Positions 14,859 to 22,814 of a stretch of DNA of 63,972 nt are shown piece by piece. The notes under the pieces were generated by a model, which was given only the letters and a program-made list of their open reading frames with translations, did not search any database and was not told the DNA's origin. Every line of letters begins with the position of its first letter. Position 1 is the first letter of the stretch. This DNA is from Candidatus Saccharimonadia bacterium (lineage in GTDB: Bacteria > Patescibacteriota > Saccharimonadia > UBA4664): contig JBGTMQ010000012.1 in assembly GCA_041743505.1 (NCBI GenBank), positions 1-63,972 on the forward strand, written 5' to 3'. The position numbers and the translations under genes are program-made.

Positions 14859-17186
14859 CTAGTTCTTTACTAATTTACGCTCATTATGTTTCGCATATAG
14901 GTGTTTTTGAAGGTCAAAGAAAGTTGTGCGTATTTCTTCAACATCACCAAGCGTTTCAATGGCGTCTGCCAGAGCGTGGTATAGCAGCGTTAGCAGCGGG
15001 GCGAGCATGGACTCGCTTAGCTCGTCCTCGCCCTCTTGCGCGTATTTGGAAAGTACAAATTGTACGAACTCGGTTTCCTTTTCATCTAGCCTTTCATAGA
15101 TGTCCGGCTCGGCCAGCTTAATGCGCTGCTCCCGGGATATGGGCGGGGTGACGAATGACACGTAGGCCAGCACGTCGAACAGGTCGCTGCCCTCGGCCCC
15201 GATGAGCCGCTGGAGCTCTTCCAAAATGTCGCGGGTGTAGCCGGCGGCGGCCAGTTTTTCCAAGAGGGCCGCCCGTGTATTGGGGTTGGACCAGATGGCG
15301 CGGAGTTCGTCCTCGGTGCCGAAAAACTCCGGTAGGGTGCCAAACAGATTCTCCATAAATTCCTGCACCGACACCGGCTTGCCGTCAGCACCCCAGAGGG
15401 AGGTTTGGATCATGTGCTGGATCTCGCGCTCTTTGCCGTCACGCAGTTTGATCTTGATTTTGGCCTTTTTCGGCTCGGGCTCAGGGTTGTCCACGATAAC
15501 TGGCAGCTCACCCGAATCTTCCGGTCGCTCCTTCGGTTCACGCTTGGTGGTCGGCTCCACTGGTTCACCGTCCCACTCAGGATCGGCAAAGTGGTAATAG
15601 GCGTCCACGAAATCGTAGATGGTGAAGTAGGCCTTGCCGTCAAACAGGCGCGTGCCGCGGCCGATGATTTGCTTAAATTCAATCATTGAGTTGATGGGCC
15701 GCATGAGTACGATATTGCGGACATTCTTGGCGTCCACGCCGGTTGAGAGTTTTTGCGAGGTGGTCAGTACCGTTGGGATAGTACGTTCGTTGTCCTGGAA
15801 GTATTTCAAATGCTCGTCGCCACGTTTGCCGTCTTCGGCCGTTACCCGTACGCAGTAAAACGGGTCCTTGCTGTCCGACAGTTGGTTGACCAGATCTCGG
15901 ATCAGGGCGGCATGGGGTTGGTTGGCGCAGAAGATCAGGGTCTTCTCGTTCTGATTAATTTCACTCAGCACGATGCGCACGCGCTCGGCTTCGCGCTCCT
16001 TGATCTCAATGGTGCGGTTAAAGTCGGGTTCGCGGTAGATTTTGCCCTGCTCAACCTCCCCTTCCACCACGTCATCATCGGTGGTATAGACGTAATCATC
16101 GAGTGTAGTCTTCACCCGCCGCACTTTGAAAGGGGTAAGGAAGCCATCGTTGATGCCCTGCTTGAGCGAGTAGGTATAGACGGGCTCGCCGAAGTAGCGG
16201 TAGGTATCGGCGTTGTCTTTGCGCTTGGGAGTAGCGGTGAGGCCCAGCTGCACGGCGGGCGCGAAGTACTCCAAGATGCGGCGCCAATTACTTTCGTCGT
16301 TGGCGCCGCCGCGGTGACACTCGTCAATAATAATGAGGTCGAAAAAGTCCGGCGGGTACTCGCCGAAGTACGGCGCATTGTCTTTGCCGCTCATGAAGGT
16401 CTGGAAGATGGTAAAGAAAACGCTCGCATTGGTGGGTACGGCGCCTGCTTTACGGATGTCGAGCGGGTTGACGCGCACGATAGCATCTTCACCAAAGTTC
16501 AGAAAGTCGTTCATAGCCTGTTTAGCCAAATTACTGCGGTCGGCCAAAAATAGAACGCGCGGGCGCCGCCGGCCATCCCGGCGCAAGTTCCAGCGACTCT
16601 GGAAAAGCTTCCAAGCGATCCAAAACGCTAATTTGGTCTTGCCCGTACCAGTAGCCATCGTCACCAGTACGCGCTGTTTGTTCTCGGCAATCGCATTCAC
16701 TGCCCGGTTCACGGCGACTTCTTGGTAATACCTCGGACCGTTCCCATTTACTGGTTCGAACGGCACGGCGTCAAAGCGGTTTTTCCACTCGTTTTGGTCC
16801 GAGAAGGTCAGATCCCAGAGCTGCTCGGGGCTGGGAAACTGCGCCACTTCCCCTTCCCGGCCATGCTTCATGGAGATTTCGTAGATGTCGTGGCCGTTGG
16901 TGGCATAGGCGTAGTCAATGTCCAGCTTGGCGGCGTAATCCTTGGCCTGGCCTACGCCTGTAGCCGCCGGTTTGCCTTCGGGTTTGGCCTCGATGACGGC
17001 GATCTTTTGGTTCTTATATACGAGCACGTAGTCGGCAATGTCGGCCTTACCCCGTTCGCCGTTGGCCTGAATGCGACCAGCGGTAATACGGTGCTCCCGC
17101 AAGATTCGGGAATCTTCAACTACGCCCCAGCCGGCGGCTTTGAGCTTGGGATCGATTAATTCGGCGCGGGTGTCGGCTTCGTTCAT
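14859..17186 (-). CDS. hsdR: type I restriction enzyme, R (endonuclease/helicase) subunit
   Basis: N-terminus MNEADTRAELIDPKLKAAGW, Walker A MATGTGKT, DEAH-like IIIDECHRG, helicase C-terminal motifs. The ORF track starts at 17342, but ATG 17186 gives the canonical N-terminus and removes the overlap with 17259..17639. Confidence 0.9.
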   Translation of the reverse strand: MNEADTRAELIDPKLKAAGWGVVEDSRILREHRITAGRIQANGERGKADIADYVLVYKNQKIAVIEAKPEGKPAATGVGQAKDYAAKLDIDYAYATNGHDIYEISMKHGREGEVAQFPSPEQLWDLTFSDQNEWKNRFDAVPFEPVNGNGPRYYQEVAVNRAVNAIAENKQRVLVTMATGTGKTKLAFWIAWKLFQSRWNLRRDGRRRPRVLFLADRSNLAKQAMNDFLNFGEDAIVRVNPLDIRKAGAVPTNASVFFTIFQTFMSGKDNAPYFGEYPPDFFDLIIIDECHRGGANDESNWRRILEYFAPAVQLGLTATPKRKDNADTYRYFGEPVYTYSLKQGINDGFLTPFKVRRVKTTLDDYVYTTDDDVVEGEVEQGKIYREPDFNRTIEIKEREAERVRIVLSEINQNEKTLIFCANQPHAALIRDLVNQLSDSKDPFYCVRVTAEDGKRGDEHLKYFQDNERTIPTVLTTSQKLSTGVDAKNVRNIVLMRPINSMIEFKQIIGRGTRLFDGKAYFTIYDFVDAYYHFADPEWDGEPVEPTTKREPKERPEDSGELPVIVDNPEPEPKKAKIKIKLRDGKEREIQHMIQTSLWGADGKPVSVQEFMENLFGTLPEFFGTEDELRAIWSNPNTRAALLEKLAAAGYTRDILEELQRLIGAEGSDLFDVLAYVSFVTPPISREQRIKLAEPDIYERLDEKETEFVQFVLSKYAQEGEDELSESMLAPLLTLLYHALADAIETLGDVEEIRTTFFDLQKHLYAKHNERKLVKN

Positions 17187-17205
17187 TTTATTATGATGCC
17201 ATGAA

Positions 17206-17235
17206 TTGCGTTTACTGCCTAGCTTCGCGTATAAT
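17206..17235 (+). promoter_or_regulatory. promoter of the TIR-like operon (divergent from hsdR)
   Basis: TTGCGT (17206-17211), 18-nt spacer, TATAAT (17230-17235). GGAGG RBS at 17248-17252, 6 nt before ATG 17259. Confidence 0.45.
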
Positions 17236-17258
17236 CTGATCACCAATGGAGGCAAATC

Positions 17259-17639
17259 ATGGCCGATACCAAGACTGTTTTTATAGCATTTGCAAAAGAG
17301 GATGAAGGTACCCGCAATCTGTTTACTGGACAGCGTGTTCACACAAGGACACCGTTTGAGTTTATCGACATGTCCGTCAAGGAGCCTTACGCTACCGAGT
17401 GGAAAGAGCGAGTTACGACTCGGATTCGGCGAAGCTATGGTGTAATTGCGCTTATCTCATCATCGACACCCAGGGCAACAGGCCAGTTATGGGAAATTAG
17501 TACGGCAGTGGCCGAAGGTAAACCCGTGCTAGGCGTATGGATTGAAGACGGCTATCGCACCAAACCCGCCGAAATGGGCGGCAAGCCGTGTGTCGTCTGG
17601 AGCTGGGATGCGATATCGAACTTCATTGATTCGTTGTAA
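17259..17639 (+). CDS. TIR-like protein (ThsB / MTH538-DUF1863 type)
   Basis: 126 aa. TVFIAFAKEDE...SYGVIALISSSTPRATGQLWEISTAVAEGKPVLGVWI parallels the ThsB pattern RVFFSFHYQD...VTCVLIGSQT..RRWVRYEI..S...GNKIIGIHI, including the conserved Glu in W/Y-E-I. Confidence 0.7.
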   Translation: MADTKTVFIAFAKEDEGTRNLFTGQRVHTRTPFEFIDMSVKEPYATEWKERVTTRIRRSYGVIALISSSTPRATGQLWEISTAVAEGKPVLGVWIEDGYRTKPAEMGGKPCVVWSWDAISNFIDSL

Positions 17640-17644
17640 CCATC

Positions 17645-18133
17645 ATGGCGGATAATACCAAGCTAGAAATCTATAAAATGGCCGCCGAGATGGCCGACAG
17701 GGTTTCTGCTAGGCGTATGCTGGCGAACGGCTTTTTCCTGACGCTGCACACTACTCTGGCAGGTATTTTAGGCATCATGTATGACAAGTTGGCCGAAGAT
17801 AAGCGTGCCGTGCTCCTGTTTATGTCTGTTGTAGGCATCGTGCTGGCTGCTTCATGGTTTTTCAACATCCGGTCGTACAAGCGGTTGAACAAGGCAAAAT
17901 ACGAAGTCATCAACGAGATGGAGAAAGATTTACCCTACCAGAACTTCACCGATGAGTGGGAGCGTCTCAAAGTTGACAACGAAGAAGAAACAACAGGCAT
18001 GCGTAAGCGGTGGAAGAAGTGGAAAGACCGCTATACTGACCTCACCAATGTCGAAGGCACCGTACCCATCGTATTCGCCCTTATTAACATTTTTATCTTC
18101 GTCGGGGCGTTATTTAAGATTATAATTAAGTGA
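17645..18133 (+). CDS. small 3-TM membrane protein (SLATT-like effector candidate)
   Basis: 162 aa. Amphipathic N-terminal helix; TM1 FFLTLHTTLAGILGIMY; TM2 LLFMSVVGIVLAASWFF followed by a charged helix (RSYKRLNKAKYEVINEMEKDL); C-terminal TM VPIVFALINIFIFVGALFKIII. Starts 5 nt after the TIR-like stop codon. Confidence 0.6.
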   Translation: MADNTKLEIYKMAAEMADRVSARRMLANGFFLTLHTTLAGILGIMYDKLAEDKRAVLLFMSVVGIVLAASWFFNIRSYKRLNKAKYEVINEMEKDLPYQNFTDEWERLKVDNEEETTGMRKRWKKWKDRYTDLTNVEGTVPIVFALINIFIFVGALFKIIIK

Positions 18134-18134
18134 T

Positions 18135-18833
18135 ATGGCGACAGACAAAAACTACATAACCAAGGTTGCGAACAATATTAGGGCGAAATTTACGGCCGGC
18201 CAGCTACCGTCAGATGGGCTGGAAATGCTATTCAATAGCTATGCCGTGCTAGCATTATCTAAAGGTGAATCCGTCACTAGTCGGGACGTGCATGACGCCT
18301 GGTCAGCTTGGGCGACCGAATACGACCCGGATAATAATTCCCTCACGCCTTTTGATGAATTGTCCGAAGGCACCAAGGCTCAAGACGACAAGTTTGTTGA
18401 TGCCATTAGGAAGACAGTGGCCGAAATGGGCCTCAAAACTACAGCTAAGATTAGGCTTAGCGTGGGTGCCGAAACATCTGAAACAGAAATGACTGCCGTG
18501 CGTGAGGCGTTTGAATCGACCGACTTTGAGCTTGATTTAAGTGCTGGCCTTGTCAGGGCGTCTGCCGACGAGCTTCCAATGTATGTGGCAATAATTGCTC
18601 AAGGACTTGCGACGAATGCCTTATGGGATCTAATCAAACTCCCAGTCCATAAGGTATTCCAAGATACTCGCATCAACAGGCCTCGCTCGACCGAGGTTAT
18701 TGTTCGGCGAAAGAAATACGAAGCGTTTATCAGTAAGGACAAGTTCCGTGTCAGGGTTTCTACCGAAGATTATGCGTTTCCTGACCTCGATTCGCTGATC
18801 AAATATGTTCAGAATAACAATTTAGATGACTAG
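18135..18833 (+). CDS. hypothetical protein, third gene of the TIR-like operon
   Basis: 232 aa; ATG lies 1 nt after the preceding stop codon. The N-terminal VHDAWSAWATEYDPDNNSLTPFDELSEGTKAQDDKF is reminiscent of the bacterial RyR-domain motif (weak, by eye). Confidence 0.55.
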   Translation: MATDKNYITKVANNIRAKFTAGQLPSDGLEMLFNSYAVLALSKGESVTSRDVHDAWSAWATEYDPDNNSLTPFDELSEGTKAQDDKFVDAIRKTVAEMGLKTTAKIRLSVGAETSETEMTAVREAFESTDFELDLSAGLVRASADELPMYVAIIAQGLATNALWDLIKLPVHKVFQDTRINRPRSTEVIVRRKKYEAFISKDKFRVRVSTEDYAFPDLDSLIKYVQNNNLDD

Positions 18834-18958
18834 ACAAGTCCGTCACATCTCCTGTGCAGGCATTGAATGCGTTAAGCGTGGCTTACTTACTAGCTTCAAG
18901 ACTCGCTACCGGAATAATTTAATCGTCTGTCATTTATTGATTAGATATAATTCTTAGC

Positions 18959-19615
18959 ATGGGTAAGTTGATCAACATCCTACTTAACCGCGATGGAGTT
19001 GTATACCGTTTTGGACGGGTTGTTTTTAATGATGTGGGCGACATCTACTACAATTTTGGCACCAAATACGCCCAGAAGTTGAACTATCATGATTCATACC
19101 ACGCCTCAAACGAGGTGCATCAAGGGCGGCAACGGGGCGATGCGGGGATGGTATCTCAGTTCATCCCGCCAGAGCAAATCACTGCACCTATTCAATTCGG
19201 TTCAACAATTGGACGATTTGAGGATTTTCGCCAATTCAATGGAGCGATTAGTCGTCGAGATGTGCTCCTCAGTAACCCCGAGAGGGTGACTCACCCAGTC
19301 TTAGGGGTTTATCTTGAACCAGCTCGCACACTTATGGTTCGAAGAGCATATGGCTACCTTCCCCCGTTAGAGGCCGAGGTGCTTGCAATTCATACTCGCC
19401 GTCTTACCCCTCTTTTGGATGTAACAGTGGTACACGTCTCAGTTGCATCGACTTTCGGTGGCATTATTGATTTTGACAGGAGATTTACAAGTAAGACTTT
19501 AAAGGATTACTACAAAGGAGTTGGGGGATGGGCGCTGGCTGCCGCGCCCGACTTCAGAATAAGCGTTGAGGCCCATTCTGGTCGACTTCAAGACGTTCCA
19601 AGGCCGCGAGAGTAA
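18959..19615 (+). CDS. hypothetical protein
   Basis: 218-aa ORF. TATAAT at 18943-18948 lies only about 10 nt before the ATG and there is no obvious RBS, suggesting a leaderless-type start. No recognisable motif. Confidence 0.5.
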   Translation: MGKLINILLNRDGVVYRFGRVVFNDVGDIYYNFGTKYAQKLNYHDSYHASNEVHQGRQRGDAGMVSQFIPPEQITAPIQFGSTIGRFEDFRQFNGAISRRDVLLSNPERVTHPVLGVYLEPARTLMVRRAYGYLPPLEAEVLAIHTRRLTPLLDVTVVHVSVASTFGGIIDFDRRFTSKTLKDYYKGVGGWALAAAPDFRISVEAHSGRLQDVPRPRE

Positions 19616-19652: not shown

Positions 19653-20849
19653 TTAATCCCCGAAAAAGGCCTCGGCAAGGAGCGATTGCTTGAGATCGTC
19701 AAGGACAGCAAGTTTTTGCCGGTAGACGCGAGACAGCGCCTGCGTTGATTGTTTCAATTCATCAAATTTTTCCACAAGCTTCTGTTGTTCGGCTAGAGGA
19801 GGAGTGGGGATAGGATAATTTTTTAACTTCGACCCGTTAATATTAGCTTGGTGAACACTCGAGCTCATAACTGTTTTTCCATAGCTTCTTGCGAAGGTGC
19901 TATTCAGGTAATAATTAAGATAATCAGCATTTAGCACTGCCTTCTTTCGCCTTATTCGAATCAAATAGCCGGCGAAGATTGCTGGCATATCGTTTTTATA
20001 GATCGCAGTTTTACCTACTAGCTCGGCGCTATTTGTTCGATTAAATAGTACGTCATCATGGTTAAGTGAATATTTATTAATCTCTCGTTCATCATTTGTA
20101 TAGACAAGATTGCTCCAATCGATTGCTCCGTTTTGGACATTGCCCATTCTCAGTACTGGAACCCTTCCCGTTTCGACTGATTTTGTCGATGAGCCATAGT
20201 CAACACCTTCACAAAGTTCACCTAGCTTTGTCATCTCCCAGCCTTGCTCCATAAGCGAATTCTCTACATTTCGCTCTAAAATCTTTTGTGAGTTGCTAAG
20301 CTGTTTTTCAACGTTAGCTCTGGCGGCGGCGATGGCGGCGAAGACTTTATCTAGGATGCCGGCAATGCGTTGCTGCTCAGAGGTTGACGTAGGATATTGG
20401 ATTGTAAAATTATTTGCCAAAACCGAGCGTGCAAGCTCTGTTTGTCCGCTTGTTCCCTCCCCAGCCTGCTTGATTTGGTCTTCGATGCCTATTAGAAGGT
20501 AGCCAAAGTAATCAGGGTGGAATTTTTCTTGTTTTGGCCGCGCGATGGTTACATGAGAGTCTACAGTTGCGGGTTCAGAAGAAGCACTTCGTAGTTGTGC
20601 GACTCGGCCGAGCGTGCCCGTACCTGTGGAGTTTATCAGGACATCACCTGCTCTCAGGAGCCGCTCTTCACTTACTTTTTTTACGTGACTATCGTGGCGA
20701 CGCGCAAATGTAAAATCCACCTTGTGATCACGCACACACTTTTGGTTTAGGACTTGGATGCCGCCTGATTCGAGGTATTTAGGCGAGATGCCACGATTTA
20801 ATAACTCGCAGGCTTCGCCTAGCGTAGAGGTCTCCCAGCCCGCCTTCAT
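19653..20849 (-). CDS. hsdS: type I restriction-modification specificity subunit
   Basis: 398 aa with two target-recognition-domain halves, each followed by a conserved helical spacer (EQQRIAGILDKVFAAI / EQQKLVEKFDEL). 4-nt overlap with hsdM. Confidence 0.85.
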   Translation of the reverse strand: MKAGWETSTLGEACELLNRGISPKYLESGGIQVLNQKCVRDHKVDFTFARRHDSHVKKVSEERLLRAGDVLINSTGTGTLGRVAQLRSASSEPATVDSHVTIARPKQEKFHPDYFGYLLIGIEDQIKQAGEGTSGQTELARSVLANNFTIQYPTSTSEQQRIAGILDKVFAAIAAARANVEKQLSNSQKILERNVENSLMEQGWEMTKLGELCEGVDYGSSTKSVETGRVPVLRMGNVQNGAIDWSNLVYTNDEREINKYSLNHDDVLFNRTNSAELVGKTAIYKNDMPAIFAGYLIRIRRKKAVLNADYLNYYLNSTFARSYGKTVMSSSVHQANINGSKLKNYPIPTPPLAEQQKLVEKFDELKQSTQALSRVYRQKLAVLDDLKQSLLAEAFFGD

Positions 20850-22330
20850 AGTAGCTTGCGAATTGATTGGAGGATTTTAGCGCTCTCGGCATCAAGAGCA
20901 GCGATTTCGTCGAGGATTTCTTCGGGGGTGCGGTGAGGCGCGGCTTCGGGGGCGTGGGGGTTTTTGACGGAGAGGTCGAAGGTGGTTTGGCTGATGTCGT
21001 CGACGTTGATCGCCCAGCTTTTGTCGGAGTCGGCCTTGGTTTTTTCGAGTTCGACGAACTCGGCCATGTCCTGCTCGCTGAGCGGGTTGGTTTTGCCGAG
21101 GTTGCGGCCGGGGTTGAGCTGGTAGTACCAGATTTGATTGGTGGGGGCTCCTTTGTCGAAGAAGAGGACCACAGTTTTGACGCCGGCGCCCTGAAAGGTG
21201 CCGCTGGGCATATCGAGAATAGTGTGGAGATTGGCACTTTCGAGGAGGAGTTTGCGCAAGGAGACGGAGGCGTTGTCGGTGTTGGAGAGAAAGGTGTTCT
21301 TGATGACGATACCGGCGCGGCCGGGGGCGCGGAGGATTTTGAGGAAGTGCTGCAGGAAGAGGAAGGCGGTTTCGCCGGTTTTGATCGGGAAGTTTTGCTG
21401 GATTTCGGAGCGGATTTTGCCGCCGAAGGGCGGATTGGCCAGCACGATGTCGTAGCGGTCTTTTTCTTCGATATCGGCGATGGGTTCGGATAGTGTGTTC
21501 ATGTGCCGGAGGTTGGGGGCTTCGATGCCATGGAGGATCATGTTCATGGTGCCGATGACGTAGGCCAGGGATTTGAGCTCTTTGCCATAGAAGGTGTACT
21601 TTTGGAGGGTTTCGACGTCGTGGGTAGAGAGCTTTTGGGGGTCGTCGCCGCGTATGTAATCGAAGGCTTCGCACAAGAAACCGGCTGAGCCGACGGCGCC
21701 ATCGTAGACGGTTTCGCCGATGCGGGGGTTTACCACTTGGATAACGGCTTTGATGAGTGGGCGCGGGGTGTAGTATTCTCCCCCGTTGCGGCCGGCGTTG
21801 CCCATGTTTTTGATCTTGGCCTCATAGAGGTGGGACAGTTCGTGTTTTTCGGCTTGGCTGCGGAAGCGCAGACTATCAACGATGTCGATGACGTCGCGGA
21901 TGACATAACCGCTCTGGATTTTGTTGCGCAGCTCGCTGAAGATTTCGCCGATTTTGTACTCGATGGTGTCCGGGTGTTCGGTGACAAGCTTGTATTTGGC
22001 GAGGTATGGGAAGAGATCATTGTTGACGAAATCGCGCAGGTCGTCGCCGTTTAGGGCAATATTGTGGTCAAGTTTACCGTCGGCGGTTTTAGGTGAGGCC
22101 CAGGTGGTCCAGCGATGGGCTTCATCAAGGATGTAGGCGTAGGGTCGGTCGGCCAGGGCGGCTTCGGTTTTCTTGTCTTCCTCGAGATCATTGAGGTACT
22201 TAAGGAAGAGGATCCAGGAGGTTTGTTCGACGTAATCGAGTTCGTTGCTGACACCGGCGTCTTTCCAGAGGGTGTTGTCGATGTTTTTGAAAGCTTGCTC
22301 GAAGTTGGCAGGTTTGGTGGTGTCTGGCAT
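20846..22330 (-). CDS. hsdM: type I restriction-modification N6-adenine DNA methyltransferase subunit
   Basis: 494 aa. N-terminal HsdM domain (LWKDAG..DYVEQTSWILFLKYL), GEYYTPR, motif I DGAVGSAGFL, motif IV NPPFGG. Confidence 0.9.
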   Translation of the reverse strand: MPDTTKPANFEQAFKNIDNTLWKDAGVSNELDYVEQTSWILFLKYLNDLEEDKKTEAALADRPYAYILDEAHRWTTWASPKTADGKLDHNIALNGDDLRDFVNNDLFPYLAKYKLVTEHPDTIEYKIGEIFSELRNKIQSGYVIRDVIDIVDSLRFRSQAEKHELSHLYEAKIKNMGNAGRNGGEYYTPRPLIKAVIQVVNPRIGETVYDGAVGSAGFLCEAFDYIRGDDPQKLSTHDVETLQKYTFYGKELKSLAYVIGTMNMILHGIEAPNLRHMNTLSEPIADIEEKDRYDIVLANPPFGGKIRSEIQQNFPIKTGETAFLFLQHFLKILRAPGRAGIVIKNTFLSNTDNASVSLRKLLLESANLHTILDMPSGTFQGAGVKTVVLFFDKGAPTNQIWYYQLNPGRNLGKTNPLSEQDMAEFVELEKTKADSDKSWAINVDDISQTTFDLSVKNPHAPEAAPHRTPEEILDEIAALDAESAKILQSIRKLL

Positions 22331-22418
22331 ATGAGTAATTTTACGCTGTCAGCGGAATTATTGAAAATTAGGGAGATGTTTTGTTCTCTTTTTGTTCGGT
22401 TTATGATATTCTTTGCCT

Positions 22419-22814
22419 ATGGTGAAAGACTTCGATAGGTGGAATCGCTATAAGCAGTTGCTAGATGCTACTCAGGCCAATGTTTACTATCGGACGAGAG
22501 AAGTATGGTGGTGCTCCATTGGCGTAAATATCGGACGAGAGCAAGACGGTCATCATGAACGGTTTGAACGTCCAGTACTGGTATTGCGGCGATTTAACAG
22601 CGGTCTCTTTTGGGGCGTCCCTATATCAACAAAACTTAAACCTACCAACCCGTACTATTTAGCTTTCAAACACGAAGATGAATTATATTCGGCGATTATC
22701 TCGCAAATGCGGATATTTGATACTCGGCGTCTTGTCCGAAAACTATATACCCTTGATCAATTTAATTATGCCAAGATTAAATCTAACGTTATCCGTGAGC
22801 TAGCAATAGCCTGA
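22419..22814 (+). CDS. MazF/PemK-family toxin-like protein
   Basis: 131 aa from ATG 22419. REVWWCSIGVNIGREQDGHHERFERPVLVL matches the PemK/MazF N-terminal pattern (GEIWWV.LG.N.GSEQ.G..RPVLIL). No antitoxin-sized ORF upstream. Confidence 0.65.
   Translation: MVKDFDRWNRYKQLLDATQANVYYRTREVWWCSIGVNIGREQDGHHERFERPVLVLRRFNSGLFWGVPISTKLKPTNPYYLAFKHEDELYSAIISQMRIFDTRRLVRKLYTLDQFNYAKIKSNVIRELAIA

Follow-up and report, generated by a model that had tools for sequence, protein, structure and literature searches.

A candidate Thoeris-type cassette with an 8xMP membrane protein and a DUF7701 partner, nested in a type I restriction-modification locus of a Candidatus Saccharimonadia bacterium

Introduction

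In type IV Thoeris, a TIR protein of the ThsB type is paired with the caspase-like protein ThsE, and the signal is N7-cyclic ADP-ribose (N7-cADPR) (Rousset et al., bioRxiv 10.1101/2024.10.24.620036). Membrane proteins are the effectors of other types. A December 2025 survey that covers types I-XI and about 18 untested effectors gives a transmembrane (TM)-Macro protein for type II, DUF2270/ThsF with three TM segments for type V, and SLATT/ThsH for type VII (Yirmiya et al., bioRxiv 10.64898/2025.12.03.692087). Here we describe a three-gene cassette, made up of the open reading frames (ORFs) ORF1 to ORF3, in a stretch of 63,972 nucleotides from a Candidatus Saccharimonadia bacterium (GenBank assembly GCA_041743505.1, contig JBGTMQ010000012.1), which we call the window. 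ORF1 encodes a ThsB-type TIR, ORF2 a small membrane protein of the Pfam family 8xMP, and ORF3 a DUF7701 domain followed by a second domain that we call X. On the balance of the sequence evidence, we favor with moderate confidence the reading that these genes form an abortive-infection cassette with TIR signalling of the Thoeris type, one that has been inserted into a type I restriction-modification (R-M) locus and in which 8xMP would be the membrane effector and DUF7701 a signal-binding brake.

The cassette resembles type IV Thoeris in the clade of its TIR, in the catalytic residue Glu79 and in having a short TIR as the first gene of the operon, but it has no caspase-like gene, and 8xMP and DUF7701 stand at the effector position. 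With types II, V and VII it shares the order of a short TIR gene and then a gene for a small multi-TM protein, and a predicted oligomeric breach of the membrane in response to a signal derived from ADP-ribose (ADPR). ORF2 belongs to none of their families, however, and whereas those systems consist of two genes, the cassette adds a third protein that is ryanodine receptor (RyR)-like and, in the lineage of the window, a fourth domain, X.

Phage proteins with RyR domains bind 2'cADPR, 3'cADPR and cADPR, and one of them cleaves these molecules (PMC13232231; bioRxiv 10.64898/2026.06.04.730250). The residues that contact the ligand are H75/W78/H100/D117 in RyDEP (PMC13232231) and H129/W132/H154/D171 in RyR Tad (gp68), a validated cADPR sponge (bioRxiv 10.64898/2026.06.04.730250). 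DUF7701 is likewise a small helical domain with an H-x2-W...H-x16-D pocket, and likewise occurs on its own in lytic phages, but it falls below the PF02026 threshold and its loop is about 11 residues shorter. In the cassette its gene belongs to the host, is part of a TIR operon and is coupled to that of a membrane protein. This would place the domain on the side of defence and not, like RyDEP and RyR Tad, on that of counter-defence.

The position of the cassette also has a precedent. In the prr locus of E. coli, the gene for the PrrC anticodon nuclease is embedded in a type Ic R-M system, with hsdS on one side of it and hsdR on the other. In both cases genes of the abortive-infection type are found within a type I R-M operon, in the interval from hsdS to hsdR. 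They differ in that there is no sequence relationship, the insert in the window is on the opposite strand, and nothing suggests that the R-M system regulates it.

A preliminary description of this DNA, made from its letters alone, did not recognize the layout as that of a described system, and our searches agree with this: none of the PADLOC-DB 2.0 models represents ORF2 or ORF3, and a literature search found no description of 8xMP, DUF7701, PF24838 or PF24792. The names 8xMP and DUF7701 are also absent from the searched parts of the supplement to the Thoeris survey (bioRxiv 10.64898/2025.12.03.692087), although the effector may be listed under a generic label in the remainder of its Table S1. 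We considered whether ORF2 might correspond to the putative '3TM' effector class of Yirmiya et al. and found no support for this; the rows of that class that we covered, about three-quarters of the 100, are all paired with another type of TIR, 'FISHSW'. The cassette therefore looks like an undescribed variant of Thoeris and no new kind of system.

Results

ORF1 encodes a TIR of the type IV Thoeris clade

ORF1 had been read by eye as a ThsB-type TIR with a conserved glutamate in the motif LWEI. Both parts of this reading held. With 32.4 bits, the protein clears the PF08937 (ThsB_TIR) cut-off of 21.2, and it also has weak matches to the ThsB models of PADLOC; the glutamate is Glu79 within GQLWEIS. 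The validated ThsB of Pseudomonas sp. 1-7 (PsTIR) is 44% identical to ORF1 (E 3e-40), and its E79 aligns with Glu79 of ORF1. PsTIR produces N7-cADPR, and its E79Q mutant has lost defence (bioRxiv 10.1101/2024.10.24.620036). In our alignment this residue is invariant across the TIRs linked to 8xMP and those linked to caspases. Closer relatives are metagenomic TIRs encoded directly upstream of Peptidase_C14 genes, at 71-78% identity, and a TIR from IMG that is labelled 'Caspase - Type IV', at 76%.

Caspase-like and 8xMP genes alternate beside the TIR

Using a narrow alignment of ORF1-type TIRs, we collected the 80 closest metagenomic TIR relatives. Caspases were detected with a hidden Markov model (HMM) built from confirmed caspase-like neighbors, and Pfam Peptidase_C14 was confirmed on a sample. 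A caspase-like ORF was present in 69 of these 80 loci, directly downstream of the TIR in 62, and 8xMP was present in 6; the other 5 were too short to judge. No locus among the 80 had both. Similarly, the caspase HMM had no match in the window or in 84 loci with 8xMP, so the Peptidase_C14 effector beside the TIR that defines type IV is absent from the window. The absence of a SIR2-SLOG or Macro ThsA, which the preliminary description had pointed out, was confirmed with Pfam, where ORF2 to ORF4 gave no match to SIR2, SLOG or Macro. An either/or choice between caspase and 8xMP within one TIR clade is the pattern predicted by the exchange of effectors in a signalling system, and it is the strongest argument for placing 8xMP in the effector slot.

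One further arrangement was seen in this clade. In L121/L122 (4388-4864) the gene after a type IV-clade TIR encodes a 158-amino acid (aa) DprA/SLOG-like protein (DNA_processg_A, E 2e-6), with a caspase-like gene elsewhere in the locus, and the DprA/SLOG-like protein may be a second effector.

ORF2 is a membrane protein of the 8xMP family

ORF2 matches Pfam 8xMP (PF24838) at 131.1 bits against a threshold of 30, over positions 1-135 of the 136 in the model. After an N-terminal cytoplasmic helix, the chain has a TM hairpin (about residues 30-46 and 55-73); residues 74-139 are helical and charged, and a further TM segment (about 140-160) lies at the C-terminus. In the hydropathy profile the segments at about 55-75 and 140-160 are strong and that at 30-46 is weaker, and in the AlphaFold2 (AF2) monomer (pLDDT 86.5) a long hairpin of helices precedes two short helices and a helix at the C-terminus. 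Model and profile thus agree with the architecture that had been proposed from the letters. We collected and aligned 103 homologs, in which R19, S21, R23, R24, N28, W71, L81, K85, E93, E104, E137 and P141 are invariant. Most of these residues are on the presumed cytoplasmic side, with R19, S21, R23, R24 and N28 in the N-terminal helix.

The preliminary description had likened ORF2 to SLATT-type pore effectors, a kinship that is not supported, and we reject membership of ORF2 in these families. ORF2 reaches 13.5 bits (E = 0.056) with SLATT_6, whose cut-off is 27.1, and among the 37 family members it is the one protein with a match to any SLATT model at E <= 1, a result from searches that included no profile-profile comparison.

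ORF3 begins with a probable distant relative of the RyR domain

Residues 6-94 of ORF3, a protein said at first to have no clear family, match Pfam DUF7701 (PF24792) at 98.3 bits against a threshold of 27, and its remainder belongs to a second small family, X (see below). The same description had noted a weak RyR-like motif near the N-terminus, and profile, hhalign and viral fold evidence leans toward this hunch. The best matches of a profile built from 31 DUF7701 sequences among the sequences of the PDB are RyR-domain proteins: 6uhi, matched over two repeats, at 1.2e-5, then the Bacteroides 'putative ryanodine receptor' 3nrt, 4n05 and 6uag at 0.02-0.03. A comparison of DUF7701 with RyR Tad of phage vB_PatP_CB1 by hhalign (E 2e-4, probability 47%) pairs H53, W56, H67 and D84 with the ligand residues H129, W132, H154 and D171. 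In a Foldseek search of BFVD, RyR-domain phage proteins (probability 0.99-1.0, E 0.007-0.08) rank directly after the phage DUF7701 proteins, and PF02026 matches one phage DUF7701 at 0.29, short of its threshold.

The pocket itself is conserved. H53-x2-W56 and D84 are invariant in DUF7701, about 90% of whose members also have H67. The H-x2-W and H-x16-D spacings equal those of H75/W78/H100/D117 in RyDEP, and the 17 residues from H67 to D84 correspond to H100-D117 in RyDEP and H154-D171 in RyR Tad. We conclude that DUF7701 is probably a distant RyR/R12 domain with a predicted cADPR-type pocket.

The cassette is conserved as a unit and varies around a core

When each species was represented by one genome, a scan turned up 8xMP relatives in at least 440 genomes, and we examined gene order in the best 80 of the 440. 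These are mostly Actinomycetota, together with Saccharimonadales, Chloroflexi and one archaeon. DUF7701 is directly downstream of 8xMP in 71 of the 80, usually overlapping its stop codon. A short ThsB-like TIR is directly upstream of 8xMP in 37 and close by in 2 more, and the full TIR-8xMP-DUF7701 triad is present in at least 36. The same gene order in many unrelated genomes takes the arrangement far beyond chance, and the synteny of the triad that had been called for thus extends across Saccharimonadales, Actinomycetota, Chloroflexi and one archaeon.

Several loci have TIR and 8xMP without DUF7701. In L169 (2723-4519) the pair is downstream of a type I hsdR and is preceded by an ADP-ribosylglycohydrolase gene; in L180 it is on a Haematospirillum plasmid; and in L170 the two genes are in reverse order. 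In L126 (2982-3869) and L129 (3150-3989) TIR and 8xMP are fused in a single protein. Distant 8xMP genes have a different small partner, an 89-aa protein whose top Pfam match is RyR (E 0.006, 17.2 bits vs 27.4). The robust core consists of 8xMP together with a TIR, a small RyR-like protein or both.

Further details were seen at these loci. The ADP-ribosylglycohydrolase of L169 may replace a signal-degrading partner. The fusions of L126 and L129 are flanked by more stand-alone TIR genes, with hsdM/hsdS upstream in L129. In L166 (3304-7828) and L168 (58-867) the distant 8xMP is followed by the 89-aa protein, which carries HEIW...PYTQLTDIEKESDRE, and then by a 2100-aa TIR_2-TPR protein. We also considered P0106 (253 aa) as an 8xMP-DUF7701 fusion and rejected it; the junction is frameshift-like and the last TM segment is destroyed, and its joint annotation as 8xMP and DUF7701 is probably an assembly or sequencing artefact.

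Solo DUF7701 genes in Streptomyces phages

A stand-alone DUF7701 is encoded by 44 lytic Streptomyces phages with genomes of about 130 kb. These copies are 37-52% identical and keep all four pocket residues, and 8xMP is encoded by none of the 44 phages. One example is gp199 of phage Sham (L179, 2495-2758). Streptomyces hosts are themselves rich in 8xMP-DUF7701. With 8xMP missing from the phages and the pair common in their hosts, the solo copies look like counter-defence genes, and more specifically like candidate anti-defence sponges or decoys.

The C-terminal domain X of ORF3

No Pfam family covers X, the last 132 residues of ORF3. An exhaustive search with HMMER yielded 30 relatives that stand alone and are about 130 aa long. 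One of these, P0228, is 47% identical to X and is encoded directly after DUF7701 as the fourth gene of a TIR-8xMP-DUF7701-X operon. Because X is a separate fourth gene elsewhere, ORF3 of the window is a genuine DUF7701::X fusion, which it has in common with its closest relative, L005. The AF2 model of X is of moderate confidence, and a fold search returned only weak tautomerase/MIF-like matches. A 160-aa gene that follows DUF7701 in L004 and L013 was considered as an equivalent of X, without support: BLASTP found a shared patch of 15 residues, and the X-family HMM misses it. In L184 (2501-2908) a stand-alone X directly follows the gene for an 836-aa ResIII helicase, with no TIR, 8xMP or DUF7701 nearby, which suggests that X is mobile and serves more than one system as an accessory domain. 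In ORF3 we take X to be an accessory specific to the lineage of the window.

The cassette splits a type I R-M locus

The coordinates of the cassette and its neighbors are collected in Table 1. Three tightly packed ORFs on the plus strand, wedged into a type I R-M locus, had been described from the letters, and both observations were upheld. ORF1 and ORF2 are 5 nt apart and ORF2 and ORF3 are 1 nt apart, the GGAGG before ORF1 is present, and Pfam identifies hsdR, hsdS and hsdM on the minus strand. With hsdR on one side and hsdS and hsdM on the other, the cassette splits the R-M locus and has the opposite orientation. Its G+C content is 47-50%, against 54-58% in hsdR and most of hsdM. In windows along the DNA, G+C is 45-50% over 17100-19500, which covers the cassette and ORF4, against 54-58% at 15000-17000 and 20700-22200. 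The lower G+C of the cassette and ORF4 fits a later insertion. By its best matches and neighboring genes, the window belongs to a chromosome of Saccharimonadales.

Table 1. Positions of the cassette, its parts and neighboring features in the window.
Feature	Position	Strand	Length	Annotation
ORF1	17259-17639	+	126 aa	ThsB-type TIR, type IV Thoeris clade
ORF2	17645-18133	+	162 aa	Pfam 8xMP membrane protein, presumed effector
ORF3	18135-18833	+	232 aa	DUF7701 and C-terminal domain X
ORF3 N-terminal domain, residues 1-100	18135-18434	+		DUF7701, four-helix
ORF3 C-terminal domain X, residues 101-232	18435-18833	+		Small alpha/beta domain
ORF4	18959-19615	+	218 aa	Orphan ORF, 125 nt past ORF3
hsdR	14859-17186	-		ResIII, EcoEI_R_C, HSDR_N (Pfam); divergent from ORF1
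hsdS	19653-20849	-		Methylase_S (Pfam)
hsdM	20846-22330	-		N6_Mtase, HsdM_N (Pfam)
Putative promoter	17206-17235	+		TTGCGT, 18-nt spacer, TATAAT (-10 at 17230-17235); from reading the sequence
GGAGG ribosome-binding site	17248-17252	+		6 nt before the ORF1 ATG
PemK/MazF-like toxin ORF	22413-22814	+	133 aa	PF02452, 33.7 bits; just past hsdM, beside ligA

The divergent gap between hsdR and ORF1 is 72 nt long and contains the putative promoter, which had been claimed as the cassette's own. The -10 element is indeed exact, but the -35 element agrees with the consensus at 3 of 6 positions, a consensus scan did not call the site, and promoter-like sites around the cassette are no commoner than in shuffled sequence. 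A promoter at this site is plausible, a weaker statement than the one first made.

ORF4 had no match in Pfam, PADLOC, NCBIfam or PHROG, and tblastn of the loci collected by then gave no homolog. We rejected it as a fourth member of the cassette because it has no family and no homolog in those loci. A TATAAT lies about 10 nt upstream of it, and it may be an orphan gene or no gene at all. On the far side of hsdM, no obvious antitoxin ORF was seen by the PemK/MazF-like ORF. A search of plasmid DNA gave a single short TIR match and nothing more.

Related cassettes elsewhere adjoin R-M genes, Schlafen/AlbA_2, DUF4268, integrases and recombinases, and the recurrence beside R-M genes that had been put forward as a check is therefore seen in related loci. 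L101 (2631-8359) is a second case nested in a type I R-M locus, where an 8xMP-type triad has a Schlafen/AlbA_2 gene at one flank and DUF4268, hsdS and hsdM at the opposite flank.

Discussion

In the mechanism that we favor, ORF1 would sense the phage and convert NAD+ to an ADPR-derived signal, which from the clade of the TIR may be N7-cADPR. ORF2 would replace the caspase-like protease as the effector that kills the cell or arrests its growth, probably as an oligomeric membrane-breaching assembly. The DUF7701 domain of ORF3, with its RyR/R12-type nucleotide pocket, would bind the same signal. As a brake made in step with 8xMP, it could sequester or hydrolyse stray signal or keep the pore shut, and 8xMP would fire only once the output of the TIR exceeds the capacity of DUF7701. 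We favor the role of a brake because TIR and 8xMP appear to work without DUF7701, because phages deploy it alone, and because those of its relatives that have been characterized act as sponges or hydrolases. The TIR-8xMP pairs and TIR::8xMP fusions without a third gene suggest, in addition, that the third protein is more like a signal-binding regulator than a sole sensor. The preliminary description had proposed that sensing and membrane killing are split over separate small proteins. The genes are separate here, but the idea has to be revised to the extent that pairs and fusions manage without the third gene.

Several observations weigh against this mechanism. About half of the 8xMP-DUF7701 pairs have no adjacent short TIR; upstream of them is an NB-ARC/TPR or NACHT STAND NTPase, a TIR_2 fusion or nothing recognizable, and the pair may thus answer to other inputs. 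For 8xMP, sequence and fold searches of the PDB gave no relative, so that no solved or characterized relative is at hand, the literature search for the family returned no paper, and an octamer is implied by the Pfam name alone. The kinship of DUF7701 with RyR domains is distant: the probability given by hhalign for RyR Tad is only 47%, a PDB fold search with the full-length two-domain model of ORF3 was not significant, with RyR2 at rank 40, and ORF3 has no match to PF02026 at E <= 1. Position 67, that of the phosphate-contacting histidine, is asparagine in the window protein and its clade. Finally, tight translational coupling would be compatible with a stoichiometric sensor complex as well as with a brake.

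The alternative that survives best keeps the Thoeris-type system and changes the role of DUF7701, which would bind the TIR signal in its RyR-like pocket and, as the receptor, open or assemble the 8xMP pore. The two proteins would then make up a ligand-gated membrane effector, a formal parallel to the action of cADPR on a RyR channel. The stop/start overlap with 8xMP in 71 of the 80 genomes suggests a stoichiometric complex of the kind that such a receptor calls for, the residues of the RyR-type pocket are invariant, a second and more RyR-like small protein follows the distant 8xMP genes, and the fusion to X shows that the domain acts inside a multi-part assembly. Yet the TIR-8xMP pairs and TIR::8xMP fusions lack DUF7701, and 8xMP can apparently be driven without it. 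The solo copies of phages are easier to explain as dampers than as activators. We regard a receptor role as unlikely.

An arrangement with no small-molecule relay appears improbable to us. The TIR would then itself be an NAD+-depleting effector, as in CBASS, Pycsar and SPARTA, and 8xMP-DUF7701 would be a separate sensor or an independent membrane pair of the toxin/antitoxin kind that travels along. That bacterial TIRs can be NADase effectors is known from the literature, and in about half of the genomes the pair indeed has no TIR next to it, with STAND NTPases as neighbors in some. Against this, members of the ORF1 clade make N7-cADPR and are paired with a signal-activated caspase, the strict alternation of caspase and 8xMP is what an effector swap predicts, and the RyR-type pocket points to an ADPR-derived ligand. 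We consider it very improbable that the cassette is non-immune, whether as a mobile addiction or membrane-stress module that stabilizes the R-M island or as a housekeeping function of these cell-surface-attached bacteria: R-M genes and a MazF-like toxin do flank it, which makes the logic of a selfish element possible, and integrases or recombinases stand at many of the loci, but its TIR clade is an established anti-phage sensor, the solo DUF7701 of 44 lytic phages implies phage-host conflict, and the neighborhoods are typical of defence islands.

If the brake reading is right, the cassette would represent a new Thoeris effector module, a membrane protein with a RyR-like signal-binding partner, reached from type IV by a simple swap. 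The module is present in at least 440 species-representative genomes, mostly of Actinomycetota, and also in candidate-phyla bacteria that defence catalogues cover thinly, and the window shows cleanly how a defence cassette can be nested in a type I R-M operon. On the host side there would be a RyR/R12 nucleotide pocket, wired to a membrane protein, and the proposed link between cADPR and RyR would become testable in bacteria. The solo DUF7701 genes of the Streptomyces phages with genomes of about 130 kb would in turn be a predicted anti-defence family. More tentatively, and as a possibility that we hold to be less probable than not by a good way, the parts may form one axis, in which a cyclic ADP-ribose signal made by the TIR acts through a host RyR-type protein as the ligand-binding partner on an oligomeric membrane pore, and solo DUF7701 of phages serves as the counter-defence. 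If such a RyR-pore axis exists, bacteria would offer a model of how cADPR acts on the ryanodine receptors of animals, an action long disputed, and the axis may even be ancestral to it.

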